The notes beneath the pieces were generated by a model, which worked only from the letters and a program-made list of their open reading frames with translations, made no database searches and was not told where the DNA came from. Source: a virus (lineage: Duplodnaviria > Heunggongvirae > Uroviricota > Caudoviricetes). Taken from it: a stretch of 64,000 nucleotides of DNA. Position numbers and translations under genes: made by a program. The stretch lies in IMG/VR virus record IMGVR_UViG_3300037467_000966; one strand, 5' to 3'. Of the stretch, positions 3,921 to 64,000 are shown one piece after another. Each line of letters opens with the position of its first letter. Position 1 is the first letter of the stretch.

Positions 3921-4637
3921 TTATCCTGCTTGAGCCTCCATGCTATCTAATAATTCATTGACCAGTTCATCTGCTTCCGCATTCTCTTCTCGTGGTACAT
4001 GAATGAGATTAATACTATCAAACTCTTCTAGTAATTCTAATGCACAATCACGTAATCGTATTAAGTGTGGCGCTTTTGTAGTAGAAATTCGGTTGACTTG
4101 TGTGACAACCATTCTTGAATCGCTAAAGACATCAATGTGTTTTGCATTTAAACCGTTCGCCAATAGGTATTCTAATGCTTCGATTAATGCAACATATTCA
4201 GCTGTATTGTTTGTAGCTTCTGCTTCTGCGATGTGTTTTTCTGGGTCTTCATGTTGGAGTCTTGGCAACTGAATGGATGAACCGAGATACTTCGCTCCCT
4301 TGTGTAATAGCTGACTATCTCCACGAACAATGTAGGATATGCCGCTTACATTCGGTCTGGTGGTATCGTTGTTCCCTCGTGCCGCGCCGTCCACATTCAC
4401 AACCAACCGTTGGTAGTTATACTTAGGCTCTAGTTTCTCTTTAATTTCTCTGATAAGTAAATCAGTATCATGTCCATCTTCCTTTAATTGTTCAATGAGC
4501 TTACGAAGCTCTTCATTCAATTCATATAGTTGTTGGAGCTTGATAATGTTTCCTTTAAATTTGTCCAGCTGGTAAATCTTCTCCATGTATACTCTAAGAA
4601 GTTCCACCGCCATGTTGTAAGATACTTTGTAATTCAT
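3921..4637 (-). CDS. rnhA: Ribonuclease H (RNase HI-like) with N-terminal coiled-coil extension
   Basis: NVDGAARGN...AEYVALIEALEYL...DSRMVVTQ...HVPREENAEADELVN matches the RNase H catalytic DEDD signature order. Confidence 0.8.
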   Translation of the reverse strand: MNYKVSYNMAVELLRVYMEKIYQLDKFKGNIIKLQQLYELNEELRKLIEQLKEDGHDTDLLIREIKEKLEPKYNYQRLVVNVDGAARGNNDTTRPNVSGISYIVRGDSQLLHKGAKYLGSSIQLPRLQHEDPEKHIAEAEATNNTAEYVALIEALEYLLANGLNAKHIDVFSDSRMVVTQVNRISTTKAPHLIRLRDCALELLEEFDSINLIHVPREENAEADELVNELLDSMEAQAG

Positions 4638-5425
4638 AAGATGTTTTCCCCTTTTTGATGTGTTTATTTATCACTATCTTTGCCTCCTTTTGTTTAACAA
4701 ATACAATGGGACTTCAGCTCAACTGAATACCTGCCACTCAGTTATTTCACGTATATACTCGTACTCGGTCTTCACTACTGAGGGAATGCGCCACCACTCG
4801 CCGTGGGATTACACGTCTTACATATACTTCGTCTACTAGCCACTGACTTTCATAGGGAATTTTAGGGGCGGACAGTGCCGTGACCCTTGGCTCTTCTATT
4901 GCTTGGGCGTCCCTTGCATGACATGAATTCGGTTTATCTAGCAGTACGAATTTTTTCGTGGCTGGCAACTAAGCCTCCATTAGCCGAAGCTAAAGCTAGG
5001 TACAGTCTAGAATGCCGCCTAGACCGCAGCCAGTAGTTCCCTACTTATCTTCCCCTTACTAGAGATTCCTAATATCTTATGTCAGAACACAGTATGAATT
5101 CTCATACCGTCAGCTCACATAAGATTAACTTAGATTTCGGATAGGCTGTCAGGTCACGCTCCTTCATTTATCTGCTGGTGCATCCCCCAGCTAGCACCTA
5201 CGCATCCTAATCTCTAAGTAAGACAAGAAGACTTCAGATATGTCGTCACGGATATTCTTCGGCCCACCGTGCTATCCCAGCCGATATATATGGGATTACT
5301 AAAAGTTCTTGGCATCTTCTTTATCTGGTGACGGGGTTAGTTTTTGGAAGGAGAATAAACCGTCATATCTCCTGGCTCTGGTCAACATTTTTTATTTAAG
5401 CGGGAAAGCTGCCAAACAAAACCCT

Positions 5426-5512
5426 TGGAGCTGCCAGGAGGATTCGAACCTCCGACCTCTCCCCGTCGATGTGGACTCTTGGGGGAGTATTCTACCGCTG
5501 AACTACAGCAGC
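5426..5512 (-). tRNA. tRNA-like gene with encoded CCA. Canonical acceptor, D and T arms, but a 19-nt anticodon loop (12-nt insertion). Anticodon possibly AAG if the insertion lies after position 37.
   Basis: Minus-strand read GCUGCUG-UA-GUUCAGCGGUAGAAU-A-CUCCC[19 nt]GGGAG-AGGUC-GGAGGUUCGAAUCCUCC-UGGCAGC-U-CCA. The 7-bp acceptor stem pairs (two GU), and the T loop UUCGAAU is canonical. Confidence 0.5.
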
Positions 5513-11445: not shown

Positions 11446-12044
11446 ACCATCACTCCTTGAATAAAAAAAATTCTTTACCCAATAGAAAGTACAAACAAGA
11501 TAGGATTCGAATCAGCGTGTGCATGCCCCAGGTTAGCAGCTAAAGGAAACCATAGGTTCCTCCACTCATCTAATACCTATCATTGATAAGAGAACGTCAG
11601 ACCAGGCTGGTAATTTCTAGGCATGCATTTAACCCCACCTGTACCATGAGGTCACCTACAACGTCTTGGAATTCTCTTATGCGTACTCTCTATTCAGTAA
11701 AGAATTTAAAAAGCTCCTTGGGCAGGAAGAAAATAAGATACAATCATAGGCTTCAGTGCTTACCATCCGACAGTGGGACTCGAACCCACACGCCTCTCGG
11801 CGGACAGAGCTATCTCCGTCTGCGTCTGCCAATTTCGCCATGCCCGATGGGGCTTACTTGGCACCTATGATATGGAGAAGAACTTCGGATTGGTGTCTAT
11901 TGCAGACCCCAGAAGGAATCGAACCAGCTACTTTCCGCTTATAGGCGGCTGTTTTACCCAATAAACTATGCGGGCCTCCACTACACCGTAGTTCCTGGCA
12001 TTCTTCTCATTCTTATTCTCTACCTGCCCAAAGAGCAAGTAACC

Positions 12045-13019: not shown

Positions 13020-13937
13020 TTACGCAGTAGCCTCCGTCTTTTTAGCAGGAACTTTCTTCGCTGGAGTCTTCTTTACTTCCACTTCAGCCTTTGGTTCTTC
13101 AACTGGTTCTGGTTTTAAGAAACGTGCCTTATTCAGCTTGGTATCAAAGCTCATCGTTTGTGCATTGAAGGTAACGGCATGAGTCTTTAATCCTTCACCC
13201 TGTCTTGCGTCAGCTGATAACACTGTATTGGCAAAACCTAATGCTAAGTTCGCTGCCGTTTGGTTCGTAAAGATGTTCTGAGGATTGCTCACGGCCCGCT
13301 CCGCACAACTCATTTCATGTGGAAGTTTATCTGTTGCCTCTAGAATCTCTGGATACATATCCGCTACGCTTGGAAGATTGAATAAGTGAGGAACCTTTTC
13401 GCCCTTCACAAAGTCACGTCCAGCATTGTAACCAACAACAACTTGACCAGCCCACTCTTCATTTCCCATGTCCAGCCAGAACATACCTTTTGTTTCCTTG
13501 AACACTTCATTCACAATCGCACGAGTCTTATTGTTATCCACCGCACCGACTACGAAAGGAACCAAGTTATGCCGATTAACAATTTGCTTTAACATCTTTG
13601 GCCCATCCAGATATTCTCCAATGATGGTTACCTCAACACCGAACGCACCGCCATAACGCATGCCCATGATTTCAGCTTTGTTATGACCAACATCTCTTGG
13701 CAAGAAGTTCTGACGTGTTAAGTTCTTATCCTCAACGCTGTCTGCATCAATGATAGTTACTGCATGCAATGCCTTGTTCTCCAGCTTAAGCATTCTGTTT
13801 TGAAGACTGATTTGACGAATTAATTGTGGAATAAAATAACCGCCGTTGCCGCCTGCTCCAATAATAATCCAATGCTTTGCCTTCTTTGCTTGTACATCCA
13901 AAGTATAAGTTGGTTCTAATGCCATTGATAAATCCAT
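13020..13937 (-). CDS. E1-like ubiquitin-activating enzyme (ThiF/MoeB fold)
   Basis: Rossmann motif WIIIGAGGNGGY, then IIDADSVEDKNLTRQNF...DVGHNKAEI (the E1/ThiF ATP-binding and arginine-finger region). K/P/E-rich C-terminal tail. Confidence 0.8.
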   Translation of the reverse strand: MDLSMALEPTYTLDVQAKKAKHWIIIGAGGNGGYFIPQLIRQISLQNRMLKLENKALHAVTIIDADSVEDKNLTRQNFLPRDVGHNKAEIMGMRYGGAFGVEVTIIGEYLDGPKMLKQIVNRHNLVPFVVGAVDNNKTRAIVNEVFKETKGMFWLDMGNEEWAGQVVVGYNAGRDFVKGEKVPHLFNLPSVADMYPEILEATDKLPHEMSCAERAVSNPQNIFTNQTAANLALGFANTVLSADARQGEGLKTHAVTFNAQTMSFDTKLNKARFLKPEPVEEPKAEVEVKKTPAKKVPAKKTEATA

Positions 13938-14007
13938 GATTAATTCCTCCTAGTTTTTGTTTTGTTCCTTAATTGAAGTAAGAGCAGCCAAAGACTGCCC
14001 TCTCTTC

Positions 14008-15294
14008 TTAATCTAAGAACCAATCATTACGTTCGCCATGAAGATGACCATAACCGCTGTTCTCAGTCATTGTATCACTCACAACGTAATCGTACCCAAG
14101 GTCAATCAGCTCTTGAACGATTTCCTTAACGGTCTCTTCCACTTCGCCAATTGATTTAGTGTCGTCTCCCAGATTTTTTTCCAGAAAAATTTCGACTTCT
14201 GTTCTCGGCTCGCTGCTTGCGCTTTTGCTCGCGCTGCTCCCGCTTAGTGATTCTTTTTTTTTAGAATCTAAGCCTTGTGCTTTCGCATTAGCTGCCACAA
14301 TATCATCCTTGTTCGCTCGTCCCCCTGGTGAGCCATGGTAGCCATAGCCGCCAGATGTCCCATACCCATAGTAGTCCCACTCGTCCCCCCACTTGTCGTA
14401 ACTGGGAGATGTCCCTGTCCCCGACTTTTTTGCGTGATAGTTGTAACCTCCGTAAGAACGAGAGTGTTGTCCCATCCAATCGTCTGGAGCTTCAACACGA
14501 GGCCATGGTCCTTTAAATGATTTGTGTTCTACTTTTTCTTCGACTACTGGTTCGAATCCTTCTACTGGTACAGTAGTTGTTACCAGTGTCTTGATTTCTA
14601 CTTGAGGAATATCAAACAGCAAAGCTGGGTCAATGTTTACGCGTGTGCCGCCACATACCCAACGGAATAAGAAGTTTGGTTCATCCTTGTCGATGTTGCC
14701 CCATACTCCGTAGAACTGAGTCATGTTTTCATTGGCATCATCTGTACCAGACCAGAACGCTCCCATCGTATGGTGGCTGTGCGTCTCACATAATGGTGTG
14801 CAATTCTCACGAAGATAATTCACCATCCCATCCTGATGGAACTCAGATAATGAACCAGAGTTCTTTTGCTGTGGACAATACACAATCAACTGTCCATCTT
14901 CAATAAGGCCCTTGATGTCTGTGCCATCTGTATACTTTGGTGGCAGCTCCACATTATCATGATTCCAGAAGAACAATGCGCTGGCTTCTGTCTTATCCTT
15001 CGTATGAACATCACGATAGAAAGTTAATACCATGATTAGATACTTCAAAGGAATCTTTGGAATCAATAACTCTGGACCTTCTTCCATTGATTCAAGACCT
15101 GGAATTGCTTTGTCCGCTGGGATATCTGAAAGCTTTACTTTGAATAAAGCAACAGGAGTCTTCACCACTCGGAAGACCCCGTTACGTGCAACAACGATAT
15201 TGGTTGGTTTATCATAAGCCTCAGCTGGTTGTGGACCGAAGTGCTTACCTACTAATTGACCTGCTAACATTGCGGTTAAATCTAAATTTGCCAT
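14008..15294 (-). CDS. JAB/MPN (JAMM) metallopeptidase with long low-complexity G/Y/S-rich C-terminal region
   Basis: Perfect JAMM motif E...HSHHTMGAFWSGTD (H-x-H-x7-S-x2-D). Confidence 0.75.
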   Translation of the reverse strand: MANLDLTAMLAGQLVGKHFGPQPAEAYDKPTNIVVARNGVFRVVKTPVALFKVKLSDIPADKAIPGLESMEEGPELLIPKIPLKYLIMVLTFYRDVHTKDKTEASALFFWNHDNVELPPKYTDGTDIKGLIEDGQLIVYCPQQKNSGSLSEFHQDGMVNYLRENCTPLCETHSHHTMGAFWSGTDDANENMTQFYGVWGNIDKDEPNFLFRWVCGGTRVNIDPALLFDIPQVEIKTLVTTTVPVEGFEPVVEEKVEHKSFKGPWPRVEAPDDWMGQHSRSYGGYNYHAKKSGTGTSPSYDKWGDEWDYYGYGTSGGYGYHGSPGGRANKDDIVAANAKAQGLDSKKKESLSGSSASKSASSEPRTEVEIFLEKNLGDDTKSIGEVEETVKEIVQELIDLGYDYVVSDTMTENSGYGHLHGERNDWFLD

Positions 15295-15336
15295 TTTAAA
15301 ATTCCTCCAATTGTTTTAGTTTTTTGTTTGATTATC

Positions 15337-16095
15337 TTAACGTAAATACTGTTCACCATGACGACGAATGGCATCGCCTAAACGAATTGCTGGCTGTAAA
15401 ATATCATTCTTGAATCGTGGTGTTTCCCCTTTTGCGTCTGCTTCTTTACAGATTCTGTCCATGTATTGCAGTAAGTGAATCGTTCTCTCACGTACAATAC
15501 GTTGACCGTTTACCGTATCTTCAAAGCGCTCAAACTTGCCGCCATCTAAATCATTATTAAATGGATTAGCGAAGAAGCGGTCTGGAACAGTCATGATGGA
15601 TTTAGAACCACCAAGCGCTGGGTAATCAGACTCAGAACCCCAGCATAGGTAACTATGATTAGAGTTCGCAAATGGGAATGTATACAATTGGTCATTCAAG
15701 CTAAGCACAGGTTGCTTAATCGCATATGCTACTCCGTGGCGATACCGACGCGTATCATTTGCTGGGTTGTGCAAAACATGAATAATCCAAACTGCTGCTG
15801 GTGCTACAATCTGAAACTCAGGGAACGCATTCTCCCCTGTCTCGCTTCTCATATCAAACTTGGCAATGTGCCTTGTCTCTGGAGTTGCGATAACATACTG
15901 TTCCATGTTATTAACCTTTGTATATTTTTGTACGCCAAAACCATAAGGAAGAAGCGGCGATTCAATCCGCTCACCTCTGGTTAGGACTTCTTGAATTGCT
16001 TGAACATTTGTATTTTTGATTGAGCGCTCTCCATTACGGATAACTTCAATCTGAATACTATCTGGATTTAAGTGAATACTTGTGCGGTTTTCCAT
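15337..16095 (-). CDS. Putative E2-like (UBC-fold) conjugating enzyme
   Basis: FPFANSNHSYLCWGSESDYPAL aligns with the UbcH5 active-site region [23 protein letters not shown] (NSN-x-S-x2-C followed by S-x-W/Y-x-PAL). Adjacent to JAB and E1. Confidence 0.45.
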   Translation of the reverse strand: MENRTSIHLNPDSIQIEVIRNGERSIKNTNVQAIQEVLTRGERIESPLLPYGFGVQKYTKVNNMEQYVIATPETRHIAKFDMRSETGENAFPEFQIVAPAAVWIIHVLHNPANDTRRYRHGVAYAIKQPVLSLNDQLYTFPFANSNHSYLCWGSESDYPALGGSKSIMTVPDRFFANPFNNDLDGGKFERFEDTVNGQRIVRERTIHLLQYMDRICKEADAKGETPRFKNDILQPAIRLGDAIRRHGEQYLR

Positions 16096-16107
16096 TTCAA
16101 TTCCTCC

Positions 16108-17811
16108 TTAGAATGGTAAATCTTCTTCGTAAGTGTACTCTTCAATTACATCAAATGGCAGATGGTAATCATGGATTGCAACCCTTGCTCCATTGCTTAT
16201 ACCAGCGTATACGCATGCAGCATCAAGCTCACGGAAACGTCTTACATCCCCGCCTTCACGAATAACTACATAGCGCTCTAGTGGAATCGCTCTGCCGTTC
16301 ACATAGATGCCAGGTGCTGTTGCCCGCGGTGGTTCTGCAGTTGGTTCAGCTTGTACAACTTCTTCCACCTGAGCATTTAATCGAGCAATCAACTCATCAA
16401 ATGGCGTCTGCGTTGGAACTTCTTCCACCACTGGTTGTGCTGGCTGAGCTTGCAACTGTTGACGAAGTTGTTCAGCTAAAGCATGACGGCGTTCAGCATT
16501 GGCTCTCGCTTCTGCTTCTATACGCTGACGTTCTTGCTCTTCCAACTCTTGGAGTCGCGCTTCTTCCTCTTGGCGTCTTATGCGCTCAGCTTCCTGACGA
16601 GCACGTTCTTGTTCCATCTCACGACGGATTTGCTCTTCACGCTGACGACGTTCTTCTTCTAAACGAAGTCTTTCTGCTTCTTGACGAGCACGCTCTTCTG
16701 CCTCTTCACGCTCCTTCTGAATACGCTCCTGCTCTAACCAAGGCTCAATCTCAGCCTCCGCCTCACGACGGATACGCTGAGTAACCTCTAGCAACTCAGT
16801 ATGTCCTTCTGGCAATAAGTGCTTCCAGAATTCCATATTAAATTCAGCATAGATGTAATCTTGGATAACGATTGGAGCAACACCATTACGGCTACGGTCA
16901 CCAGTCATATCAATGCTGGTAACTTTACCCCAACCTTGCAGCTCATAACCTTCTGGCTCTTGGTAACCATCGAATGGTGGCAATGCAATCCATCCTTCTT
17001 CTTCAGAACCTGATGGAGCCATAACCTTTACCTTGAGTCCTGTAGGCACCATTTCCGCCGCTGTAGGAGCGACAGCATATTCAGGAGCCTTACCATTCTC
17101 TCTTGCCCATTCAAGGAACTTGTGAGCAAATAAGCGGTCTGTTGCATCAGCTGATTCTTGAAGCTGAACCGCTGGCTTGAATAACTTCTCCATCACCCTG
17201 CGGCTATAATCTCGAAGCTCAGTGCGGATACGCTCTAATCGTTCTTGCTCACGGCGCTGAATCTCTGCTTCCATTAACCTTGTAACTTCACCATGGATTG
17301 CAGCTAGCGCAGAATCCTTACTGTACTCAGCATCAATCCAGTTAACAAAATCAACTAGGCCAGACTGAATGAATTGATAGATGCGATTGGTCTTGAACGG
17401 AATGTACAAGAATGTATTCCCGTTTCTTTCTTCGCGGCGAACCACATAACCAGATTGAAAAGAATTACGATTGTCTCTCATTCTCCTATAAAGCTGATTG
17501 TGGTTCTGCTCAAACCAAGACTTCCATTCAGGTTCACTATTATAGATTTCTCTTATCTTGTTAGCTTTCCTGTGGATGTGACTATCAAGACGTAGAGAAT
17601 AACTATGTTGGTTCTGTCTAATGCGACAGCCAGGGAACTTCTTCTTTAGATAAGCGAACACTAAATCTTTCACTATCTCTTCTTCCTGTGCTCCTGTTTG
17701 TGGAAGCGGCGGAAACTCTTCAATGTATTGCTTGTTGGCAAGTAGCCTAGAACTCATTACAAAGTTTAACTTGCTGACTAATGCGGTTGCATTAACTGTC
17801 ATGTCCCTCAC
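16108..17811 (-). CDS. Large hypothetical protein with long E/R/Q-rich coiled-coil segment
   Basis: 567-aa ORF inside the Ubl-E2-JAB-E1 operon. Candidate adaptor, E3 or target. Confidence 0.6.
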   Translation of the reverse strand: MRDMTVNATALVSKLNFVMSSRLLANKQYIEEFPPLPQTGAQEEEIVKDLVFAYLKKKFPGCRIRQNQHSYSLRLDSHIHRKANKIREIYNSEPEWKSWFEQNHNQLYRRMRDNRNSFQSGYVVRREERNGNTFLYIPFKTNRIYQFIQSGLVDFVNWIDAEYSKDSALAAIHGEVTRLMEAEIQRREQERLERIRTELRDYSRRVMEKLFKPAVQLQESADATDRLFAHKFLEWARENGKAPEYAVAPTAAEMVPTGLKVKVMAPSGSEEEGWIALPPFDGYQEPEGYELQGWGKVTSIDMTGDRSRNGVAPIVIQDYIYAEFNMEFWKHLLPEGHTELLEVTQRIRREAEAEIEPWLEQERIQKEREEAEERARQEAERLRLEEERRQREEQIRREMEQERARQEAERIRRQEEEARLQELEEQERQRIEAEARANAERRHALAEQLRQQLQAQPAQPVVEEVPTQTPFDELIARLNAQVEEVVQAEPTAEPPRATAPGIYVNGRAIPLERYVVIREGGDVRRFRELDAACVYAGISNGARVAIHDYHLPFDVIEEYTYEEDLPF

Positions 17812-17816
17812 CTCTC

Positions 17817-18368
17817 TTAAATAAAGTCAATAGATTCAACTGCTACTGTTCTTGCACGAGTTATTTGATTCACAAAGCCAACGACTTGTCTTTCTACTTC
17901 TGGCAAACGACGCTGTATCTGATGCTTAAAATCATTAAGTTGACTATCATTGTAACGACTAAAGTCCTGAACGGTTTGTGCATTGTTTATCGTTTCAATG
18001 ATTTGTCTTAGGTCAGATGTCAGCAAAAATCTTTCCCGTTCACCCTCAAGGTCATTACAAATCCTTGCGATGTCTGGTAAGAATCCATTTGCTTCCCAGT
18101 GGTCAGCAGGCTCTTCATTCCTTACTACTTCTACTTCCACTGCTGGTCTTGCCTGTACTGCTTCTTCTGGATTCACTTGTTCATTCCTCCTTAGTGATTC
18201 ACATCTTTGACAAACTCGATAATGTGAATAAGAATCTCTATCAACCGTTTGGTTGCTGAAGCCTTGACCGCAATACATTCTGTCGCCGCTTCTTCTAATA
18301 TGAAGAACTCGCGTTGTATTACTTGGAACATACTCAATCGTTGCTACCATCTCTACACTCCCTTTCAT
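17817..18368 (-). CDS. Hypothetical protein with N-terminal Cys cluster (C-x19-CxxC), possible zinc-binding module
   Basis: 183-aa ORF directly downstream of the hexa-repeat gene. Confidence 0.55.
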   Translation of the reverse strand: MKGSVEMVATIEYVPSNTTRVLHIRRSGDRMYCGQGFSNQTVDRDSYSHYRVCQRCESLRRNEQVNPEEAVQARPAVEVEVVRNEEPADHWEANGFLPDIARICNDLEGERERFLLTSDLRQIIETINNAQTVQDFSRYNDSQLNDFKHQIQRRLPEVERQVVGFVNQITRARTVAVESIDFI

Positions 18369-18428
18369 AAAAAAATAGAGGGCCGTGCATAAGCAAGCAG
18401 CCCTCTACCTTTTGTCATGGTATCCAGA

Positions 18429-19508
18429 TTAAGCTAATTTAATCACTAGCTTTGTGAAACGGGCACCTTTCGTACCAGCTTTCACGGTGAAACGAATCTC
18501 GTCGCCAACCACTTCGAATGTTGCATTCTTCAGTTCAGGGAAGATTTCGCTCATGGATGCCTGGATTTCTTCAGGCTTTAAGCTGTCGTCTTCCACGTTA
18601 AGGCGGTTAGAGCCGTATACAACGACTCTCGCACCTTTCGTACCAGCCTTAACAGTGAATCGGATTTCATCCCCAACAACTTCAAACGTTGCGTTTTTCA
18701 ACTCAGGAAAGATTTCAGACATGGAAGCCTGAATCTCTTCTGGTTTTAAGGAATCATCCTCAACATTTAAACGATTAGAACCATAAACAACTACGCGTGC
18801 CATACCTTTCGTCCCCGCTTTCACTGTGAATCGAATTTCATTTCCAACTACCTCGTAGGTAGCATTCTTCAACTCTGGAAAAATCTCAGACATAGATGCC
18901 TGGATTTCTGCTGGAGTCAAAGATGAGTCCTCTACATTCAGACGGTTTGAACCATACACAACAACTCTTGTCATACCTTTTGTACCTGCCTTTACTGTGA
19001 ATCGGATTTCGTTTCCTACTACTTCATACGTAGCATTTTTAAGCTCTGGGAAAATCTCGCTCATAGAAGCTTGAATCTCCGCTGGTGTTAAAGAAGAATC
19101 TTCAACATTCAAACGATTGGAGCCGTAAACAACCACGCGGGTCTGGCCTGAACCAGAACCCTTTGTGCCTGCTTTGACAGTGAAACGAATCTCATTGCCT
19201 ACGACTTCGAAAGTAGCGTTCTTAAGCTCAGGGAAAATCTCAGACATAGAAGCTTTGATTTCCTCTGGGCTTAAAGAATCATCCTCAACGTTTAAGCGGT
19301 TGGAACCGTATACCACAACGCGGGTAGCACCCTTCGTCCCAGCTTTAACTGTGAAGCGGATTTCGTTTCCAACGACTTCGTAAGTTGCATTCTTTAACTC
19401 AGGAAAAATTTCAGACATTGACGCTTGAATTTCTGCAGGTGTTAAAGAAGAATCCTCCACGTTAAGACGATTTGAACCATAAACCACTACTCTTGTTTGA
19501 TTAGACAT
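18429..19508 (-). CDS. Tandem hexa-repeat small-domain protein (6 x ~57 aa, each unit ending ...KAGTKG), candidate polyubiquitin-like precursor
   Basis: Six near-identical units (T)RVVVYGSNRLNVED(S/D)SL(T/K)P(A/E)EI(Q/K)ASMSEIFPELKNAT(Y/F)EVVG(N/D)EIRFTVKAGTKG. First gene of the operon that ends with E2-like, JAB and E1. Confidence 0.6.
   Translation of the reverse strand: MSNQTRVVVYGSNRLNVEDSSLTPAEIQASMSEIFPELKNATYEVVGNEIRFTVKAGTKGATRVVVYGSNRLNVEDDSLSPEEIKASMSEIFPELKNATFEVVGNEIRFTVKAGTKGSGSGQTRVVVYGSNRLNVEDSSLTPAEIQASMSEIFPELKNATYEVVGNEIRFTVKAGTKGMTRVVVYGSNRLNVEDSSLTPAEIQASMSEIFPELKNATYEVVGNEIRFTVKAGTKGMARVVVYGSNRLNVEDDSLKPEEIQASMSEIFPELKNATFEVVGDEIRFTVKAGTKGARVVVYGSNRLNVEDDSLKPEEIQASMSEIFPELKNATFEVVGDEIRFTVKAGTKGARFTKLVIKLA
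18462..19499 (-). repeat. Six tandem ~171-180 bp near-identical coding repeats
   Basis: DNA-level repetition is visible (e.g. gtgaaacgaatctcgtc/gccaac...cttcagttcaggg recurs with period ~171-180 bp). Confidence 0.85.
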
Positions 19509-31221: not shown

Positions 31222-31260
31222 CCCCCCAGAAAGCAGAAGGCCCCGAAGGGCCTACTCAGC
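31222..31260 (-). terminator. Hairpin (GGCCCCGAAGGGCC core) at the sigma-factor gene stop
   Basis: Extended stem agtaggccc/gggccttct around a UUCG loop on RNA. Weak U-tail. Confidence 0.45.
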
Positions 31261-32682
31261 TTCTACATTTAATGTGAATGTGATAGAACCGTTATTGCTT
31301 TCTTCAAGCATGCTAATCAGCTCTTTCATTTCAGCTACGAAATCTTCAGTTGGAACGTTCCCGCCCGAAGCATGATACTTAAATGTTAGAAGCTTTTGAA
31401 TCTTACCCATTGGTGATGTCTCTGTAGCAACGCTTTCAGCAGCCATCTCCTTGCGAACCTCTGCTTCAACTTCTGCACGAAGCTCGGCTTTGATTTCAGC
31501 CTTGAACTCTTCGATTGCTTCTGCCATATTCACAACAGGCTGTTCAGGCTTCTTGATTTCCACTTGCTCAACTTCATGTTTTACAACAGGCACTTGTTCT
31601 ACCAACCTTTCCTTGTCTTTTTCACCCATGAAAGCTGGATGATTAATCACTGGCGTTTCAACTGGTACTTCAATCTCCACCCGTTTCTTAGGTTCATTGA
31701 CCCATTTGTAATCGCCTTTCTCATATAAACGACGTAATCTGGTTAGACTACCTGTTGGGACACCTGTTTGTTTTGATATCTCTGCATAGGTATATTTACC
31801 TTCTGCCAACAACTGGACCGCTTTATCGGTGTCCCCGCTATGTTCACGAACCATGCCTGGATGATTAGTCATCTTTTCCTTCCGCACTTCTTTTGGACGG
31901 TGCTTCTGAGCATACGTTGCAATAGTGCTGTAAGGTACGCCTGTCTTTTCATTGATTTCTTTGTAAGACATCGTCGTTGTCTTTAACAAGTGAATAACTT
32001 CTTTCTTATTGGCTGGTGCAATTCCTCTAGCCATTTTCTCTTCATTCCTTTCTGCCTTAGCTTGATTAGACTCAATGGTCTTTTTTATTTTCTTCAATAT
32101 CTTTTTCTCTATCCTTGATATGTAGGACTGAGAGATATCGAGTGCCGCCGACACTTCCCGTTGTGTTTGATTTTGAAAGTAACGCATAAGAATAATATCT
32201 TTATCCCGTGGCGACAAGCCTTCCAATGCAGCTCGTACTTCAGCCATGGTATCGTTCCATTCAAACACTTCTGAGAAATGTTGGATGTTCTTATCAGGCG
32301 TGACATCCATCAAAGTTAATTCATGTCCATCTATATCCGTCGTTATCGGGCTGTCAATGGACGTTTCAGCTTTGATTTTCTTACCTTTCCGAAGGAACAT
32401 CAAGATTTCGTTGTCGATGCATCGTGAAGCGTATGTAGCAAACTTGACTTCCTTCTCTGTGTTAAAAGTATGAACAGCTTTAATCATACCGATTAATCCA
32501 ATACTAAACAAATCCTCTATGTCTAGTCCTGTGTTGTCATACTTTTTTGCAATATGCACTACCAACCTGAGATTACCTTCAATTACTTTCTCTTTAGCTT
32601 CCTCATCCCCCGCCTTGTATGCTCTAAGCAGCTCTAATGTTTCTGTAGGTTTTAGCGGTGGTGGCAAATCCATCATCGACAT
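31252..32682 (-). CDS. Phage-encoded sigma-70-family RNA polymerase sigma factor with long C-terminal extension carrying two HTH-like repeats
   Basis: Region 2 DLFSIGLIGMIKAVHTFNTEKEVKFATYASRCIDNEILMFLR. Region 4 TQREVSAALDISQSYISRIEKKILKK. Then repeats Y(K/A)EI(N/S)(E/K)(K/Q)TGVP... Confidence 0.85.
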   Translation of the reverse strand: MSMMDLPPPLKPTETLELLRAYKAGDEEAKEKVIEGNLRLVVHIAKKYDNTGLDIEDLFSIGLIGMIKAVHTFNTEKEVKFATYASRCIDNEILMFLRKGKKIKAETSIDSPITTDIDGHELTLMDVTPDKNIQHFSEVFEWNDTMAEVRAALEGLSPRDKDIILMRYFQNQTQREVSAALDISQSYISRIEKKILKKIKKTIESNQAKAERNEEKMARGIAPANKKEVIHLLKTTTMSYKEINEKTGVPYSTIATYAQKHRPKEVRKEKMTNHPGMVREHSGDTDKAVQLLAEGKYTYAEISKQTGVPTGSLTRLRRLYEKGDYKWVNEPKKRVEIEVPVETPVINHPAFMGEKDKERLVEQVPVVKHEVEQVEIKKPEQPVVNMAEAIEEFKAEIKAELRAEVEAEVRKEMAAESVATETSPMGKIQKLLTFKYHASGGNVPTEDFVAEMKELISMLEESNNGSITFTLNVEAE

Positions 32683-34098: not shown

Positions 34099-34431
34099 AT
34101 GGCCTCAACTCCTTTCGTACCAAGGGATAGAAAATTCACAGAATATTCATAATAAACTTTCTTCTTTTTCCGAGGTGTAATTTTCTCTAAAAACCTTTAT
34201 TAGTATATATAGAGTGACTTTTCTACGACGCATGATGTAGAGAGTTACATTCTACAGAAAATGGAAGAAAAGAAAAACCACCACCAAAAAGGTACAGCGT
34301 GCGTACAGAGTTAGCGTGGAGTGCGAAGCATGACCACGCAGAAACGATAGCGTACAATATATACTTTATAAGATGGGGGTCTAAGGGGGCTGGACCCTTG
34401 ACCCAGTATATCCATATGGGTAGTAATGTAC

Positions 34432-48259: not shown

Positions 48260-48520
48260 TTATTCAACAACCTCCGTAAGGGAATACATTAAATCTAACA
48301 ACGGCTCGGATAAAACCTCCTCAATATAGCCGCGGTAAGGACTATCCAAATAATCAATCTCTAACGTAGGCTCTTCACCCTGAGAATCAACTATATGAAT
48401 CGTAGCCTCATCACCATCAGGAACAGTAACAGTAACGACGGCAACAACACCACTCTCAAATAAATCATCCGTAGGTTCCTCTACAACTAAATTAGCATTA
48501 CCAATACTAAACATATACAT
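48260..48520 (-). CDS. Acidic small protein
   Basis: 86-aa ORF. Confidence 0.5.
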   Translation of the reverse strand: MYMFSIGNANLVVEEPTDDLFESGVVAVVTVTVPDGDEATIHIVDSQGEEPTLEIDYLDSPYRGYIEEVLSEPLLDLMYSLTEVVE

Positions 48521-48710
48521 TCCTCCTACTAATCGGGTGCAGGATAAACTCCCTGCTTATTAAGAATAAATCTATCATCAAACAGAATACAGTCCATAGC
48601 TTAAAGAACCATGGTATAACAGACCACATAGTAAATGCCATACATGATTCAATCAAGAACGACATAACCATCCATGACTTAGCACCAACACTTACCGACT
48701 GTCTATCCAC
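48507..48710 (-). CDS. Small membrane protein, paralogue of 33322-33561
   Basis: See 33322 entry. Confidence 0.5.
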   Translation of the reverse strand: MDRQSVSVGAKSWMVMSFLIESCMAFTMWSVIPWFFKLWTVFCLMIDLFLISREFILHPISRRNVYV

Positions 48711-49174
48711 AACATCACCTCCTAATGGCGGGCGGGATTACCTTATGATTACAACATCACTATATAGTACAATAAGACATAGACAACTATATAGAGATAG
48801 ACCATATAGCATTACCCCATACAAGATAAGCTAATAGAACACCTAACCACATAGAAGTACCTATACCTAAACAAAACCATATAGCACATTTATTATAATT
48901 ATCCATACAACTTTCCTTTCATAGGTGTATTTTCCACTTTTACCTCTTATTATAGTACTTATGACTTTAGTCATTAGTCACCCATAATATAGGCACAAGG
49001 TACAAATAAATAAACATAACCTCTCAAACCCTTGGTACGCAAGGACTTTTTACTACCAGTACCCTCAAACATTCATTGTGTCTTACCTAGGCCCACTTTT
49101 AGTGTGTCCATTTGTTACCTTAAGGTTAAGTAAGTTACCATGACTTTATGACATCCAGAGAGAAAGGGAGTCAC

Positions 49175-49423
49175 CTACACGGCGCTCCCTATGCGTTCCT
49201 CTATATAGTCTCTGTCCATCTCCATCTCCATAGGATGGCTTATATAGTATTCCTCCAAGCGGCGGCGTATCTCCACTGGACCTTCTTCGGTATCACACTC
49301 TGGTAATACAGGGTCCTGTACTATATAGATATCATTGCCTATATAAGAGATGAATAGCCCGTCGGTGCCCAGTGTCATCCCTTCCTTTAATACATACATA
49401 CACTTATCAATAAACTCTTCCAT
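49175..49423 (-). CDS. Hypothetical protein inside the CTATATAG-rich spacer
   Basis: 82-aa ORF. Contains motif copies itself, so the call is uncertain. Confidence 0.4.
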   Translation of the reverse strand: MEEFIDKCMYVLKEGMTLGTDGLFISYIGNDIYIVQDPVLPECDTEEGPVEIRRRLEEYYISHPMEMEMDRDYIEERIGSAV

Positions 49424-49519
49424 TCTACCATTCCTCCTATATAGTACTACTTATGCCTATTAGCTAAATCATATAGCATTATGACACCACATATGAAAAA
49501 CAATGCCGCCACGTATAAC

Positions 49520-49612
49520 ACTCTATTCTATATAGTCTTCCTCTCCCTATATAGTTCCTGCTATATATACCATATACCTATATAGTACATGATACTCTCT
49601 ATATACATCCTA
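49520..49612. repeat. Array of CTATATAG-core repeats (5 copies, ~14-19 bp spacing)
   Basis: ctatatag at 49528, 49547, 49561, 49578 and 49597. Confidence 0.6.
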
Positions 49613-50059
49613 CCTATTAATTCAATTCAATTAATCAGGCGTAATACGCCCACCAGCGAAAGCCTCCTCTAAAGGGGTCCCCCCACAACTTCAACCAGCC
49701 GAAGGCGAATAGTCAGCCGAAGGCAGGTCCTCCTATATAGGGACTCCCACACCCTATTTGCATATGGCTCGCTCATCGCTCGCCATCGGGCTTGCACCTG
49801 CTACCGCAGGGTCCGATAAAGAACGGGGCCTCTATAGCTAAACGCTCCCCGCGTGCGTCGGCGCAACAAGTTCGAATCTTAAGGGTCCCCTTCCCATGCG
49901 TAAACTCCGTGACAGCTTCCCCCCATTCACTTGAACTTGTAACGCGCCTCCTACCAGTCAAGCTTGGCCTCGCTTCGCTCGGCGTATCGGGCGGGTATAT
50001 TCTCCAGCGTATATAGATAATGTATAAAACTAGCAGCCCATACAAGTAATCATCTCCCT

Positions 50060-50090
50060 ATATAGTAATAAAGGAGGCCGAAGCCCCCAT
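50060..50090 (-). terminator. Intrinsic terminator (RNA GGGGGC-UUCG-GCCUCC then U/A-rich)
   Basis: Immediately downstream of the 50099 stop. Confidence 0.5.
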
Positions 50091-50098
50091 GGTGACAA

Positions 50099-51319
50099 TT
50101 ACTCTGCTACAACTCCCCACATGTCAAGACCAGCATCATACTGAGCAATAGCCATGATTAATGCAAGAGTTTCACGAGGTACAACCAAGTTAGGAACAGT
50201 TTGGAATACCCAGTTGCCATCAAACTCCATATCCAAAGCGTGTGATACAGATACTTCAGCGTCAGCATGTTTCTTCTTGCAGCTTGTGCAGTATAGGTTA
50301 CCAGTGTTGCCTTTGAATTCTTTACCGCAAGTACAAGTAGCTTTCACATTGATTTCATTAGGTCTCCAGAAACCGAATGCAGGACGAAGGCCGTTCTTTG
50401 TATCCACCCATCCAATAGAAGTAGATGCAAGGTCAGAGCTAGAGTTAGCAGATGCATTCTTGATTGGGAACTCCAAGATGTTACCATTAGCTTTGATTTG
50501 GATTACCACAGTGATGTCTGGGTTGTTACGAGTACGAGACACTTCACTTGGGTCAACCAATACGATTTGCTCAATACCTAGTTCAGCATCAGACAATGTT
50601 TCAAGGATTCCTTCTAATCGGTTTAATACAGGGTATAGTTCAGCATTCAAGTACCAAGGGCCTTCAAACTTCTTGAATTCATTCTTGATTGATTCAGAGC
50701 GACCTAGACGACGACGACCTTCAGCAGCAGCAGGCTTAGTATTCTTTAGTACACGGCTAGTAGATTTACGGTTTGGTTTATTCATTTCAGTTTCCACCTT
50801 TTCATTAGTTGTAGTTTTAGTTTCTTTTACTTCAGCTTTCTTTTCTTCTTGTGTAGCAGCACCAGTATTTAAACGACGACGACCAGCAACCTTCTTTTCT
50901 TCTTGTTTCATTTCAACTTCCTCCTTAGTGTTTTCAACTTTGTTTGCATGTTTAGCCAAGAACTTTTGTGCAGCAGATGATTTAGCGATAGTAGCAGCTT
51001 TCTTTTCTTCAGGTGTAGATTCAACAGATACAGTGATTTCAGCAGTTTTAGTAGTTTTCATTAATTCCATCTCCTTAGTGTATGCTTGGTTTAGTACAGC
51101 AGCGATTGCATTAGCAACATTGATATCATCAGATACTACAGCGATGGACTTCTCTCCGCCGTTGATAGCTTCCATCACATACATATCAACAGCTTCTTCA
51201 AGTCCGTTCTTGCCCTCAGCAGTAAAGTTGTTAACAGTCATTTGGAAGTCTTCAACAAGAACATCAACACCAGCTTTAACATCTTCAGTAGTTGCTACGA
51301 ATTTTACAAATTTAGTCAT
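50099..51319 (-). CDS. Hypothetical abundant-looking protein: N-terminal domain, K/E-rich linker, C-terminal CxxC...CxxC zinc ribbon
   Basis: 406-aa ORF bracketed by terminators. CTCGKEFKGNTGNLYCTSCKK. Confidence 0.7.
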   Translation of the reverse strand: MTKFVKFVATTEDVKAGVDVLVEDFQMTVNNFTAEGKNGLEEAVDMYVMEAINGGEKSIAVVSDDINVANAIAAVLNQAYTKEMELMKTTKTAEITVSVESTPEEKKAATIAKSSAAQKFLAKHANKVENTKEEVEMKQEEKKVAGRRRLNTGAATQEEKKAEVKETKTTTNEKVETEMNKPNRKSTSRVLKNTKPAAAEGRRRLGRSESIKNEFKKFEGPWYLNAELYPVLNRLEGILETLSDAELGIEQIVLVDPSEVSRTRNNPDITVVIQIKANGNILEFPIKNASANSSSDLASTSIGWVDTKNGLRPAFGFWRPNEINVKATCTCGKEFKGNTGNLYCTSCKKKHADAEVSVSHALDMEFDGNWVFQTVPNLVVPRETLALIMAIAQYDAGLDMWGVVAE

Positions 51320-51354
51320 GATTAATTACCATCCTTATTATTAGTTATAGTTTT

Positions 51355-51392
51355 TTGGTTAAATAAATAAAGGGAAGCCCGAAGACTCCCCT
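51355..51392 (-). terminator. Intrinsic terminator (RNA GGGGAGUC-UUCG-GGCUUCCC then UUUAUUUAUUU)
   Basis: Textbook hairpin plus U-tract after the 837-aa gene. Confidence 0.75.
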
Positions 51393-61554: not shown

Positions 61555-61571
61555 CTTTGCTAGTTTAGTTT

Positions 61572-61605
61572 TTTATATAAATAAAGAGAGGCCCGAAGAC
61601 CTCCC
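61572..61605 (-). terminator. Intrinsic terminator (RNA GAGGUC-UUCG-GGCCUC then UCUUUAUUUAU)
   Basis: gagaggcccgaagacctc after the 61613 stop. Confidence 0.65.
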
Positions 61606-63619: not shown

Positions 63620-63861
63620 TATAAAACTTCCTTTCCAATTAAAATATTTTGTTTGTACATTTCAGAATCAGCGGGCAATTCTACCCAAGAAATTAAACCT
63701 TCGATTTTTGATTCTTTTCTTTTTTCGAAATTAACTTGCTTGATTTTGCTTGAAGAATCTGAGTAGTAATCTTGGTACATTTTTTCAATGCGTTTTCTTA
63801 GAAGTTCGTTTTTCATTTTCTTTTCCTCTTTTCTAGTTGTAGGTTTTTTATGTAAACACAA
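63619..63861 (-). CDS. Hypothetical protein, first gene after the CCCC-TTATATAG array
   Basis: 80-aa ORF. Confidence 0.5.
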   Translation of the reverse strand: MCLHKKPTTRKEEKKMKNELLRKRIEKMYQDYYSDSSSKIKQVNFEKRKESKIEGLISWVELPADSEMYKQNILIGKEVL

Positions 63862-63961
63862 ATATAGGAGGCCCTATATAGGACCCCCCCCTTATATAGA
63901 CCCCCCTTATAGGAAGGCCCCTTATATAGCACCCCTTATATAGAGGCCCTACTATATAGCA
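63861..63961. repeat. Phased array of 6-7 CCCC-TTATATAG units (period 14-18 bp) directly upstream of the structural-type operon
   Basis: TATATAG at 63875, 63893, (TTATAGG 63907), 63923, 63937 and 63953, each preceded by a C-run. Confidence 0.7.
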
Positions 63962-64000
63962 CCCTTTGCTAGCTGCTTCTTGTAGTAGGCCACAGTAGCC

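Follow-up and report, generated by a model that had tools for sequence, protein, structure and literature searches.

A lineage-variable TA-rich word and a conserved, apparently structured RNA element in a compact expression module of a huge phage

The window analysed here is a 64-kb stretch of DNA from a phage genome of about 526 kb, and all genes in the window lie on the minus strand. The initial annotation had described positions 48711 to 50098 of the window as a low-coding boundary between two operons. We find that this region is a compact expression module and not a gap, consisting of a terminator, an RNA-like element, an AT-rich spacer and three small ORFs (Table 1). The region illustrates that stretches of phage genomes taken for low-coding gaps can contain micro-ORFs (21–39 aa) and RNA genes, which standard annotation overlooks or wrongly calls as ORFs.

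Table 1. Features of the 48.7–50.1 kb region and its surroundings, and the second array of the word
Feature	Position	Strand	Remarks and basis
406-aa gene	50099-51319	-	Directly upstream of the terminator 50073-50088
Intrinsic terminator	50073-50088	-	GGGGGC-UUCG-GCCUCC, then UUUAUU; closes the upstream gene block; terminator scan
First copy of the word, ACTATATAG (50058-50066), then conserved leader GGGAGAUGAUUACUUGUAUGGGCUGCUAG	50030-50066	-	Alignment
Conserved non-coding GC-rich element, candidate structured RNA	49620-49998	-	Alignment, RNAalifold, pair counts
CCCGA box and hairpin H1, with tandem G.A pairs	49967-49996	-	Part of the RNA element
Long helix P-x, two arms	49933-49948 and 49860-49873	-	Part of the RNA element
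Variable hairpin	49797-49810	-	Part of the RNA element
Second CCCGA and hairpin H1'	49766-49784	-	Part of the RNA element
Copy of the word within the RNA element	49733-49740		Between H1' and the twin hairpins; sequence, alignment
Twin hairpins GCCUUCGGC-N8-GCCUUCGGC	49698-49724	-	Part of the RNA element
3' hairpins	49663-49684, 49638-49650	-	Part of the RNA element
AT-rich spacer with five closely spaced sites	49528-49605		Sequence, alignment
21-aa hydrophobic micro-ORF, VAALFFICGVIMLYDLANRHK	49447-49512	-	Basic C-terminus; homologous ORFs in relatives
ACTATATAG (49437-49445), Shine-Dalgarno and 82-aa ORF (49175-49423)	49175-49445	-	Protein family, codon evidence
39-aa hydrophobic ORF	48787-48906	-	Called by source pipelines; translation
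Last copy of the word in the region, ACTATATAGT	48760-48768		About 40 nt upstream of the Shine-Dalgarno of ORF 48507-48710
67-aa membrane-like ORF	48507-48710	-	Shine-Dalgarno about 40 nt downstream of the ACTATATAGT copy
Second array of seven TATA-type units	63861-63961	-	Each followed by a G/C-rich run, (C)TATATA(A/G)+GGGG

The terminator at the head of the module has a G+C-rich hairpin and a T tract on the transcribed strand, lies after a stop codon, and its hairpin is kept in relatives with compensatory variation (e.g., GGGGGCTTAGGCCCC). The protein of the 406-aa neighbour is conserved and basic, contains RRRL repeats and a zinc ribbon, and gave nothing in a profile search, an AF2 model (pLDDT 63.6) or Foldseek; an assignment as capsid protein, based on a weak PDB match (E = 0.21), was withdrawn. 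The 82-aa ORF, which the initial annotation had regarded as doubtful and as the only one in the region, belongs to a conserved protein family whose amino-acid sequence is kept across diverged relatives (56, 46, 41 and 36% identity to the homologues in lineages L005, L007, L248 and L008, with tblastn E-values as low as 3e-24), and it is accompanied by conserved ORFs of 21 and 39 aa. The 21-aa micro-ORF begins just downstream of the last site of the spacer block and has homologues of 20–21 aa in L005, L006, L007 and L248. Several copies of the word lie inside real ORFs, where rare codon pairs keep them, an observation that the initial annotation had missed. The 82-aa protein was considered as a binder of the word on grounds of co-occurrence, and this idea was rejected because the motif-less lineage L247 encodes the protein.

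The GC-rich island that had been pointed out earlier is real (about 49620–50000), but what it is had been missed: an RNA element, apparently structured, that is conserved and does not code for protein. It measures about 380–440 nt (about 250–440 nt across the family), and 12 related lineages have it at the corresponding position, among them the cultured Bacillus phage vB_BauM_KLEB27-3 (217 kb), which infects Bacillus australimaris. Close relatives differ in it by 1-nt indels, substitutions are equal at the three codon positions, and different relatives have different frames open across it, all of which mark it as non-coding; its DNA identity to L248 is 70% versus 57% for the neighbouring gene, indicating slower evolution. 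The helix P-x was recovered independently in eight lineages in which the sequences differ and the pairing is kept. Double changes are found at 11 base pairs, and pairing is 93.7% compared with 90.3% in shuffles, with a covariation of 0.182 compared with 0.124 (values reached in 0 of 500 shuffles); because most helices are invariant, the covariation in this small alignment comes mainly from P-x and a few short helices. GNRA-type loops (GCAA, GCGA, GUAA) and GC to GU alternations are confined to the gene strand. Moreover, in L244 the element begins 6 nt after the stop codon of the upstream gene, and it must therefore be transcribed there. With its non-coding conservation and compensatory pairs, the element apparently has the properties of a structured RNA transcribed in the direction of the genes. 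A long-range pairing of H1 with the twin hairpins, proposed by RNAalifold, was rejected, as H1 shows no compensation for the change from UUC to UAC in the loops of the twin hairpins, and local hairpins fit better.

The element had no match in Rfam 15 at the gathering score or at E-values up to 10, and the homologous elements of L008, L009 and L246 had none in Rfam either. In INPHARED, DNA similarity searches returned no relatives besides KLEB27-3 itself, whether the query was the region, the neighbouring genes or the element of KLEB27-3, and scans of IMG/VR with the neighbouring protein and with exact RNA and leader strings gave no matches. Looser RNA patterns applied to IMG/VR and GTDB genomes gave hundreds of chance or GC-rich matches, among which nhmmer found no true homologue, while the scan of one JGI metagenome yielded two contigs, one of them a real truncated copy of the element (L244). 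An H1-like hairpin in unrelated low-GC IMG/VR phages, together with an overlap with Flavo-1, has just about 25 nt in common with the element and was treated as a generic hairpin. A literature search on the word and on KLEB27-3 found nothing relevant.

The saturation of the region with the motif is real. CTATATAG is present 10 times in 48711–50098, whereas 2000 dinucleotide-preserving shuffles of that region alone gave 0.20 copies on average and never more than 3, so local composition does not explain the enrichment. Statistics for the whole 64-kb window agree with this: there are 12 copies of CTATATAG against 0.87 expected, a count reached in 0 of 100 shuffles; 10 of the 12 fall within 48760–50065, and TATATAG occurs 36 times against 8.3 expected. 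The earlier figure of more than 15 copies corresponds, on counting, to 15 distinct TATATA cores with a 5' C and/or a 3' G, of which 10 are full sites and 5 are half-sites. The cluster at 49520–49612 had been called phased, but its spacings of 21, 17, 14 and 19 do not follow a strict period, and the orientation bias of the 9-mer ACTATATAG is just 7:4. Two recurrences at other operon boundaries had also been reported. At 34205–34225 there is only a single 7-mer variant, CTCTATATATAC on the gene strand, whereas the array at 63861–63961 is genuine; its units are spaced about 13–19 nt apart, it extends from the stop codon of a 55-aa ORF to a point about 50 nt short of the first gene in the 50.1–63.9 kb block, and L009 has a similar array at 4561–4620. 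Outside these two clusters the word is rare, TATATA being present in just 6 of the 37 intergenic gaps of at least 90 nt in the window, and most of the 22 terminator-like hairpins are without the word; it therefore cannot be the promoter used throughout the genome. Two other over-represented words, TGGCGGC and CGTCGT, reflect codon usage.

The word is under nucleotide-level selection. The 82-aa ORF contains four in-frame TAT-ATA (Tyr-Ile) copies or half-copies (49340–49345, 49321–49328, 49241–49247 and 49201–49208), and in the motif-bearing lineages of its family all 17 of 17 Tyr-Ile dipeptides are encoded TAT-ATA, versus 1 of 37 in the long genes of the window. The proposal that the region carries a regulatory word marking the borders of transcription units thus holds insofar as the word is a selected, lineage-specific cis element with some promoter-like copies; as a general border marker it fails, being absent from 31 of the 37 gaps and from most of the terminator-like hairpins.

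Comparison across lineages shows what is kept in the word. Its positions are conserved in L005, L006, L007, L008, L248 and L399, where the neighbouring protein is 44–79% identical. At positions homologous to those of the window's word, the distant relative L398 has tACTCTATAG(R)GGGG, and its CTATAG occurs 9 times against 0.8 expected, all in the corresponding zone. This points to a family-wide word that is directional, TACT(A/C)TATAG followed by G or purines, with CTATATAG as its local form; L247 carries TCTATAGGAGG. The core CTATATAG of the window's lineage is a perfect 8-bp palindrome, and the palindrome is apparently incidental, because the form used in L398, CTCTATAG, has no dyad. In L247 and L398, CCTATAGGGAGGGGCC is also found inside the RNA element, but in the domain enclosed by P-x. 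The presence or absence of the word is lineage-specific, L009, L244, L246 and L249 being without it, while the genes and the RNA persist, and L006 alone has gained a new copy, GTCTATATAGAC, as a small insertion inside the RNA. The 38-nt block TATAGCAGGAACTATATAGGGAGAGGAAGACTATATAG (49528–49565) is near-invariant, with 1–2 differences, in L005, L006, L007 and L248; the spacer GGAGAGGAAGA between two sites is conserved; and the leader GGGAGAUGAUUACUUGUAUGGGCUGCUAG is near-identical in the window, L006 and L007. The stretch 50030–50066 is a candidate start of an RNA transcript. Among 53 aligned sites, conservation peaks at TATAG|G and not at a TAnnnT hexamer, stays below 0.5 bit upstream of -1 (with weak preferences for T and A at -2 and -1) and stops at about -9, and no -35-like element is conserved at any distance from -40 to -9. 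The sites do not show the bipartite sigma-70 arrangement of a -35 element 16–18 bp upstream of a TAnnnT -10 hexamer, and a sigma-70 consensus scan gave 6 sites versus 7.0 in shuffles. The suggested link to the phage sigma factor, a sigma-70-family protein at 31252–32682 and the only such transcription factor seen in the window, finds no backing in these sites.

We favour, with a probability of roughly 45%, the reading that the word forms the core of a phage-specific promoter or initiator that resembles those of T7 in shape. The TA-rich stretch of the word would melt readily, with transcription starting at the G run behind it, as in T7-type promoters (CACTATA|GGGAGA), and some polymerase or specificity factor would read the word. 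It would drive transcription of the RNA element and would give each small ORF a leader of 11–14 nt beginning with its Shine-Dalgarno, and the tandem array at 63.9 kb would act as a reinforced start for the next gene block. The placement of the word looks promoter-like in several respects: copies stand directly after terminators (50064 and 7647), and in L008 one stands 6 nt ahead of the conserved RNA 5' end; at least 11 ORF starts in eight lineages have the word's G, then 11–14 nt, then ATG; and an array precedes the first gene of a block. At 49437–49445, for example, ACTATATAG abuts the Shine-Dalgarno GGAGGAA, 13 nt ahead of the ATG of the 82-aa ORF, and also at sites with no ORF behind them the downstream flank has a direction and is rich in purines (GGGAGA, GGAGGA). 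The word also appears to co-vary by lineage, as expected of a cis signal matched to a trans factor. Against this reading, no phage RNA polymerase is visible in the window (64 kb of about 526 kb), whose large ORFs gave no RNAP match in Pfam or PHROG and contained no DxDGD motif. A tblastn search of INPHARED with T7 RNAP, whose ten commonest host genera did not include Bacillus, was uninformative for this phage. Further points against it are the end of conservation at about -9, where T7-type promoters need a specificity region from -17 to -5, the low orientation bias (7:4) and the rarity of the word outside two clusters. Four copies in one 250-nt ORF and spacings of 14–21 nt are also more than a promoter needs, and fit an array of binding sites or an RNA element more readily.

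It is conceivable, though in our view unlikely, that the word is instead a duplex-DNA site for a sequence-specific, probably dimeric phage protein, and that the clusters are operator or silencer, partition or packaging, or origin arrays and not initiation points. The perfect palindrome of the window's lineage and the density of 15 sites in 1.4 kb are in line with this, as are the centre-to-centre spacings of 18–21 bp, about two helical turns, that recur among the sites, the half-sites found in both orientations, the regular second cluster with its G/C clamps, and the lineage-specific occurrence of the word alongside genes and an RNA that stay. In addition, the rare TAT-ATA codon pairs keep the in-ORF copies, so that site density itself seems to be selected. 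However, the form at the same positions in L398 (tACTCTATAG+GGGG) is directional and not palindromic, and the flanks are asymmetric along the direction of transcription. A fixed distance of 11–14 nt to start codons would be unexpected for a partition, packaging or origin site, the conserved spacer GGAGAGGAAGA would not be required, and none of the small ORFs nearby was identified as encoding a DNA-binding protein.

Alternatively, the word may act in RNA, where CUAUAUAG beside the Shine-Dalgarno would serve as a processing site, translational operator or enhancer, and pairs of copies 18–30 nt apart would fold into 8-bp AU-rich hairpins shaping mRNA stability or ribosome access. We regard this as doubtful. 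Such a role would agree with the strict Shine-Dalgarno adjacency at a constant distance from the ATG, the asymmetry specific to the gene strand, the selection on in-ORF copies, and the conserved loop of the tandem pair. Many copies are indeed paired, folding at -5 to -7.7 kcal/mol, and the word supplies the TAG stop codons of upstream ORFs at 48787 and 63952 (at 48787–48794, its end is the stop codon of the 39-aa ORF). Yet single copies after terminators and before the RNA have no partner, the units of the 63.9-kb array are too close for hairpins, and the L398 form is not self-complementary, so hairpins between copies are not a family-wide mechanism; nor was a candidate nuclease or RNA-binding protein identified.

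The GC-rich island, for its part, could be something other than an RNA gene, either a protein-coding remnant or a DNA-level element such as single-stranded DNA hairpins at an origin or priming site, and we think this quite improbable. ORFs of 42–90 aa are open in it, in L008, L247 and L248 gene-calling programs annotated ORFs across it, the GCGAAGC hairpin is also very stable as a DNA mini-hairpin, and besides the missing Rfam match the MFE z-scores (-0.38 for the RNA) are not significant on either strand, so that stability alone is no evidence. Coding is nevertheless excluded by the 1-nt indels, the shifting open frames and the equal substitutions at codon positions, GNRA-type loops and G-U pairs restricted to the gene strand favour RNA over single-stranded DNA of either strand, and the L244 element, 6 nt past a stop codon, must be transcribed. 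Finally, a functionless excess, produced by a locally TA-rich composition, by slippage or by a small selfish palindromic repeat that spreads, could draw on the confinement of the word to some lineages and on small insertions that create new copies, as in the RNA of L006 only, but is made very improbable by the local shuffles, the positions conserved across relatives with diverged flanks, the codon-level maintenance (17 of 17) and the different but related word at the homologous positions of L398.

Joining the promoter or initiator reading to the RNA element gives a broader picture, which we put forward as speculative and, taken as a whole, unlikely. A Bacillus-type jumbo/mega phage family, from the 217-kb KLEB27-3 to the phage of about 526 kb studied here, would possess an undescribed structured RNA (about 250–440 nt) adjoining the 406-aa protein, possibly as an RNP, and one branch would express this RNA and the micro-genes from minimal T7-like TATA+G initiators by way of an unrecognised phage polymerase or specificity factor. 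Very little is known of the signals by which huge phages of Gram-positive hosts direct transcription, and a lineage-variable, initiator-like word with a fixed geometry to start codons offers a testable handle on the start of transcription and on its reader. The GC-rich island is strongly constrained and non-coding, belongs to no described family and is shared by a metagenomic megaphage and a cultured Bacillus phage; because it is conserved in vB_BauM_KLEB27-3, laboratory work on its expression and function is feasible.

Several known systems resemble parts of the module. The early promoters of phage AR9, read by its virion multisubunit RNAP, have a 13-nt AT-rich consensus, AAATATATATTAT-N6-G+1, with the start 6 nt downstream, and in the late class internal promoters within ORFs are documented (PMC5312081). 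The word is likewise an over-represented AT-rich word of a jumbo/mega phage of Bacillus-type hosts, sometimes doubled, and followed by G. In contrast to the extended AR9/phiKZ-type early consensus, it is much shorter (8–10 nt), of another sequence, without an N6 spacer and confined to two clusters in 64 kb, and the window has neither split beta/beta'-like genes nor a DxDGD motif. T4-type late promoters consist of a single 8-bp element, TATAAATA, read by gp55 without a -35. The word shares with them that it is one short TA-rich element lacking a -35 partner, and TA-rich TTATTTAT and TTATATAA stand after terminators and before genes of the 50–64 kb block. Unlike the T4 element, it has conserved C and G ends, is clustered and abuts the Shine-Dalgarno, so that a T4-like start, 6–7 nt downstream, would leave the ribosome-binding site out of the transcript; no gp55-like gene was identified here.

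Operator, iteron and centromere arrays and iterated palindromes are known from KorB sites, the P1 pac hexamers and the cyanobacterial HIP1. As in these, a short palindrome is iterated, also in coding sequence, and kept by codon choice; unlike them, the word is local and not genome-wide, is directional and non-palindromic in the relative L398, and is fixed relative to start codons. Structured RNAs of phages include the phi29 pRNA, and GOLLD and ROOL, which are often prophage-borne. Like them, the element is conserved, non-coding and GC-rich, has several hairpins and keeps its syntenic place, with variable inserted hairpins and compensatory changes. It differs from them in having no Rfam 15 match (E up to 10) and in its own motifs, namely the CCCGA box, the tandem-G.A hairpin, the twin GCCUUCGGC hairpins and the GGGGACCC boxes.

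In shape, the word is like the promoters of T7-group single-subunit phage RNA polymerases. These promoters span about 23 bp with a conserved specificity region at -17 to -5; that of T7 is TAATACGACTCACTATAGGGAGA, and those of SP6 and K11 contain CACTATAG. The sites of the word depart from this pattern in that they have no conserved -17 to -5 region, carry an extra TA step in the window's lineage, and occur inside ORFs and at 14–21-nt spacing, and no single-subunit RNAP gene was seen in the 64-kb window. What they have in common with the T7 group is TATA at -4 to -1 followed by a G run, seen here as CTATATAG and then GGAGA, GAGGA or GGGG. The core (A)CTATA(TA)G, with GGGAGA or GGGG after it, can be read directly in the window at 50066–50053 (ACTATATAGGGAGA) and in L398 (TACTCTATAGGGGGAAG), and, as in the T7 group, copies stand after terminators and ahead of many consecutive small genes without terminators between them, some of them in tandem.

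We show that the saturation of region 48711-50098 with a short TATA-like word, CTATATAG and its variants, reported in the initial annotation, is real and non-random. Across the window we count 12 copies where 0.87 are expected; 10 of them lie within 48760-50065, inside 2.2% of the window (binomial probability of about 1e-15 by our own arithmetic); TATATAG occurs 36 times against 8.3 expected. Dinucleotide-preserving shuffles of the 1388-bp region alone fall short of the 10 copies observed (mean 0.20, maximum 3), and 15 distinct full or half sites are found there. The second array, at 63861-63961, is equally real: seven copies stand in tandem, a G run after each, ahead of the gene that opens the 50.1-63.9 kb block. 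This array begins at the stop codon that ends a 55-aa ORF; a counterpart is present in the related phage sequence L009. The longest G run of this array has 8 G in the window (63881-63888) and 7 G in the same phage from another sample (L396 9730-9736). The cluster at 49520-49612, thought to be phased, has spacings of 21, 17, 14, and 19 and is not strictly so, and the supposed recurrence at 34205 comes down to a single variant 7-mer. A 333-nt gap at 34099-34431 (-) holds C-rich runs beside TATAAAG and TATATATT elements and a variant CTCTATATATAC; its plus strand is similar to the 63.9-kb array's TATAAG+GGGGG units, oppositely oriented. Nor does the word mark transcription-unit borders in general, as had been proposed, since TATATA occurs in 6 of the 37 intergenic gaps of at least 90 nt in the window and the majority of 22 terminator-like hairpins have no word after them. 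Genes of the 50-64 kb block have a different upstream pattern (51320-51392, 61560-61605), common to L001, L005, L008, L009, L247, and L248: behind a terminator come a T/A-rich element (TTATTTAT or TTATATAA), then AAAACTAAAC...(A)TTGGAGG and ATG, possibly a second class of promoter or leader.

Codon usage indicates that the word is under selection at the nucleotide level. Among 37 Tyr-Ile pairs in the window's 56 long ORFs, one is written TAT-ATA, and ATA accounts for 9% of Ile codons there; in the family of the 82-aa ORF, TAT-ATA encodes every one of the 17 Tyr-Ile dipeptides of the six motif-bearing lineages, in most cases with C before and G after, and the homologue in the motif-less L247 has TAT-ATC. 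The word is also lineage-specific: the window, L005-L008, L248, and L399 have it, and L009, L244, L246, L247, and L249 lack it in this form. In the most distant relative, L398, CTATAG is found 9 times (0.8 expected), always in the same zone and in the form tACTCTATAG(R)GGGG, with one copy inside the RNA element described below and four or five immediately ahead of the Shine-Dalgarno and ATG of successive small ORFs. With the 3' G as anchor, the window-lineage and L398 forms differ at one position (TACTATATAG versus TACTCTATAG), which we consider decisive sequence evidence that the signal is directional family-wide, the window lineage's palindrome being incidental. Among 53 non-redundant aligned sites from six lineages, T and A are weakly preferred at -2 and -1 and a purine-rich stretch lies downstream. 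The distance from the word's G to the ATG is constant at 11-14 nt at no fewer than 11 ORF starts in 8 lineages; copies stand directly after terminators at 50064 and 7647, and in L008 one copy lies 6 nt upstream of the conserved 5' end of the RNA. The comparison shows that the word is a selected, directional, lineage-variable cis element with positions fixed relative to terminators, the RNA, and start codons.

The region had been taken for a low-coding gap with one doubtful 82-aa ORF; it contains a conserved RNA-like element and micro-ORFs that had been missed, and the 82-aa ORF belongs to a genuine protein family.

Features of the region, of its relatives, and of the rest of the window
Feature	Coordinates	Strand or direction	Basis or remark
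Intrinsic terminator, 3' of 406-aa gene	50073-50088	gene direction	terminator scan
ACTATATAG, then conserved leader starting GGGAGA	after terminator, ahead of island	gene direction	
GC-rich island	49620-49998	gene direction	
Long helix P-x of island	arms 49933-49948 and 49860-49873		MFE folding
AT-rich spacer, five sites	after island	gene direction	includes 38-nt block TATAGCAGGAACTATATAGGGAGAGGAAGACTATATAG
21-aa hydrophobic micro-ORF, conserved	after AT-rich spacer	gene direction	
82-aa ORF	after micro-ORF	gene direction	36-56% identity over four lineages; tblastn E down to 3e-24
39-aa hydrophobic ORF	after 82-aa ORF	gene direction	its stop codon lies within a word copy
Extra ORF, KLEB27-3 gp275	L246 8809-9378		HELGH (HExxH) motif
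Extra ORF, 179-222 aa	in L008, L009, L247, L248, L249		
ThiF/E1-like protein	13020-13937	-	ubiquitin-like cluster
JAB-domain protein	14008-15294	-	ubiquitin-like cluster
359-aa protein with Prok_Ub match	18429-19508	-	ubiquitin-like cluster
Three tRNA-like genes, abnormal anticodon loops ('cc', 'atag', 'at')	5426-5512, 11764-11848, 11902-11976	-	ARAGORN

The 38-nt block is near-invariant in L005, L006, L007, and L248 (1-2 differences only), unlike the neighbouring protein, which is merely 46-79% identical in them. In every relative retrieved through homologues of the 406-aa protein, an element related to the island lies in the same place: a long form of about 400 nt in L005, L006, L007, L248, and L399, further copies in L247, L008, L009, L398, and the cultured Bacillus phage vB_BauM_KLEB27-3 (L246 9380-9640), and truncated copies in L244 and L249. 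The common modules are a CCCGA box followed by a hairpin, GCC-GA-GC-[loop]-GC-GA-GGC, with tandem G.A pairs and a GAA, GCAA, GCGA, GUAA or GAUA loop (H1), twin hairpins GCCUUCGGC-N8-10-GCCUUCGGC with a UUC or UAC loop, and GGGGACCC boxes. The island is non-coding, because single-nucleotide indels separate close relatives, open frames vary from relative to relative, and substitutions in its longest ORF fall equally on the three codon positions (13/15/13, 9/11/12, 12/10/11, 18/23/19). It also evolves more slowly than its neighbours, with 70% DNA identity between the window and L248, where the 406-aa gene has 57% and the 82-aa gene 32%. MFE folding found P-x independently in eight lineages of differing sequence, with pairings such as ACAAGUUC/GAACUUGU, GGUAUGC/GCAUACC, AUAC..CUUAC/GUAAG..GUAU, and GUAUACC/GGUAUAC. 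In the five long forms, a small alignment in which most helices are invariant, 93.7% of cells are paired (shuffles, 90.3%), double changes are seen in eleven pairs, and a covariation score of 0.182 (shuffles, 0.124) was reached by 0 of 500 shuffles. The MFE z-scores of the island are not significant, and the element has no Rfam match at any threshold. GNRA-type loops and GC-GU alternations are limited to the gene strand, which favours an RNA transcribed in that direction. An RNAalifold pairing of H1 with the twin hairpins was rejected because loop changes are uncompensated. About 20 unrelated low-GC viral contigs (L371-L394, IMG/VR, GC 30-34%) share an 80-nt GC-rich island, for example L372 4760-4840, placed directly upstream of a gene and ending CCCGAAAGGCCGAGCGGAGCGAGGCC; the CCCGA box and tandem-G.A hairpin of H1 recur in it, it is without Rfam match, and it could reflect a widespread hairpin module or convergence.

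The constant partner of the RNA element is the gene of the 406-aa protein (50099-51319, -), which with its homologues P0001-P0044 always precedes it, and the protein could be a partner of the RNA. Its disordered basic middle part carries several RRRL repeats and its C terminus a CxC...CxxC ribbon; it has no match in Pfam, PHROG, PDB or Foldseek and no recognisable fold (AF2 pLDDT 63.6). In more distant relatives an additional ORF lies between the two; it is missing from the window's lineage. An intergenic spacer of L009 holds a twister-P1 ribozyme-like match (5318-5369, +; E = 6e-10), which at 56.1 bits stays under the 67.2 gathering score and has no counterpart in window 44-64 kb.

All long ORFs of the window are on the minus strand. 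The gene content (DNA polymerase III alpha, a sigma-70-family factor, NAMPT, a CCA-adding enzyme, an SPFH protein, and tRNAs), the GGAGG ribosome-binding sites, and Bacillus phages as closest cultured relatives point to a very large phage with a Bacillota host. The protein encoded beside the region is found on a 526,029-bp contig; no DNA-level match exists in INPHARED or IMG/VR. The genes at 13020-19508 (-) look like a ubiquitin-like conjugation system carried by the phage. Rfam confirmed two of the three tRNA-like genes as tRNA (51.7 and 31.4 bits), and they may be intron-containing or non-canonical tRNAs. In L396, a gene of 994 aa (1-2464, -), some 7-10 kb past window position 64000 and upstream of the gene block, encodes intein-splicing and LAGLIDADG domains on the opposite strand; the strand switch falls between about 6.5 and 8 kb of L396.

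As to function, we infer that the word forms the core of a promoter or initiator: its TA-rich stretch would melt, transcription would begin in the G run after it in T7-type fashion, and the resulting leaders would start with a Shine-Dalgarno. The earlier view of a phage-specific, promoter-like regulatory word stands in that part; its tie to the phage sigma factor is unsupported, no conserved -35-like element being present across the 53 sites. That factor (31252-32682, -; 476 aa) has regions 2 and 4 within its first 200 residues and a long C-terminal extension with additional helix-turn-helix matches; the sigma of Bacillus phage Goe8 matches it best (33% identity). Counting against the promoter reading are in-ORF copies and tight spacing beyond what a promoter needs, and an orientation bias of just 7:4. 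An array of DNA-binding sites would suit the palindrome in the window's lineage, a spacing of about two helical turns, and the site density maintained inside ORFs, but is weakened by the non-palindromic L398 form. That form also weakens an RNA-level element, for which the word's adjacency to the Shine-Dalgarno and the folding of paired copies at -5 to -7.7 kcal/mol speak.

For a promoter or initiator core, the likeness is to T7-type promoters (CACTATA|GGGAGA), in which a TA-rich stretch likewise precedes a G run at the putative start; the word is without their -17 to -5 specificity region, and no polymerase gene was found for it in the 64-kb window, both of which also count against this reading. 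In the jumbo Bacillus phage AR9, the early-promoter consensus, AAATATATATTAT-N6-G, and the polymerase are unlike the window's case (PMC5312081). Over-represented AT-rich words are early promoters in such phages, and internal promoters occur among the late class of AR9 (PMC5312081).
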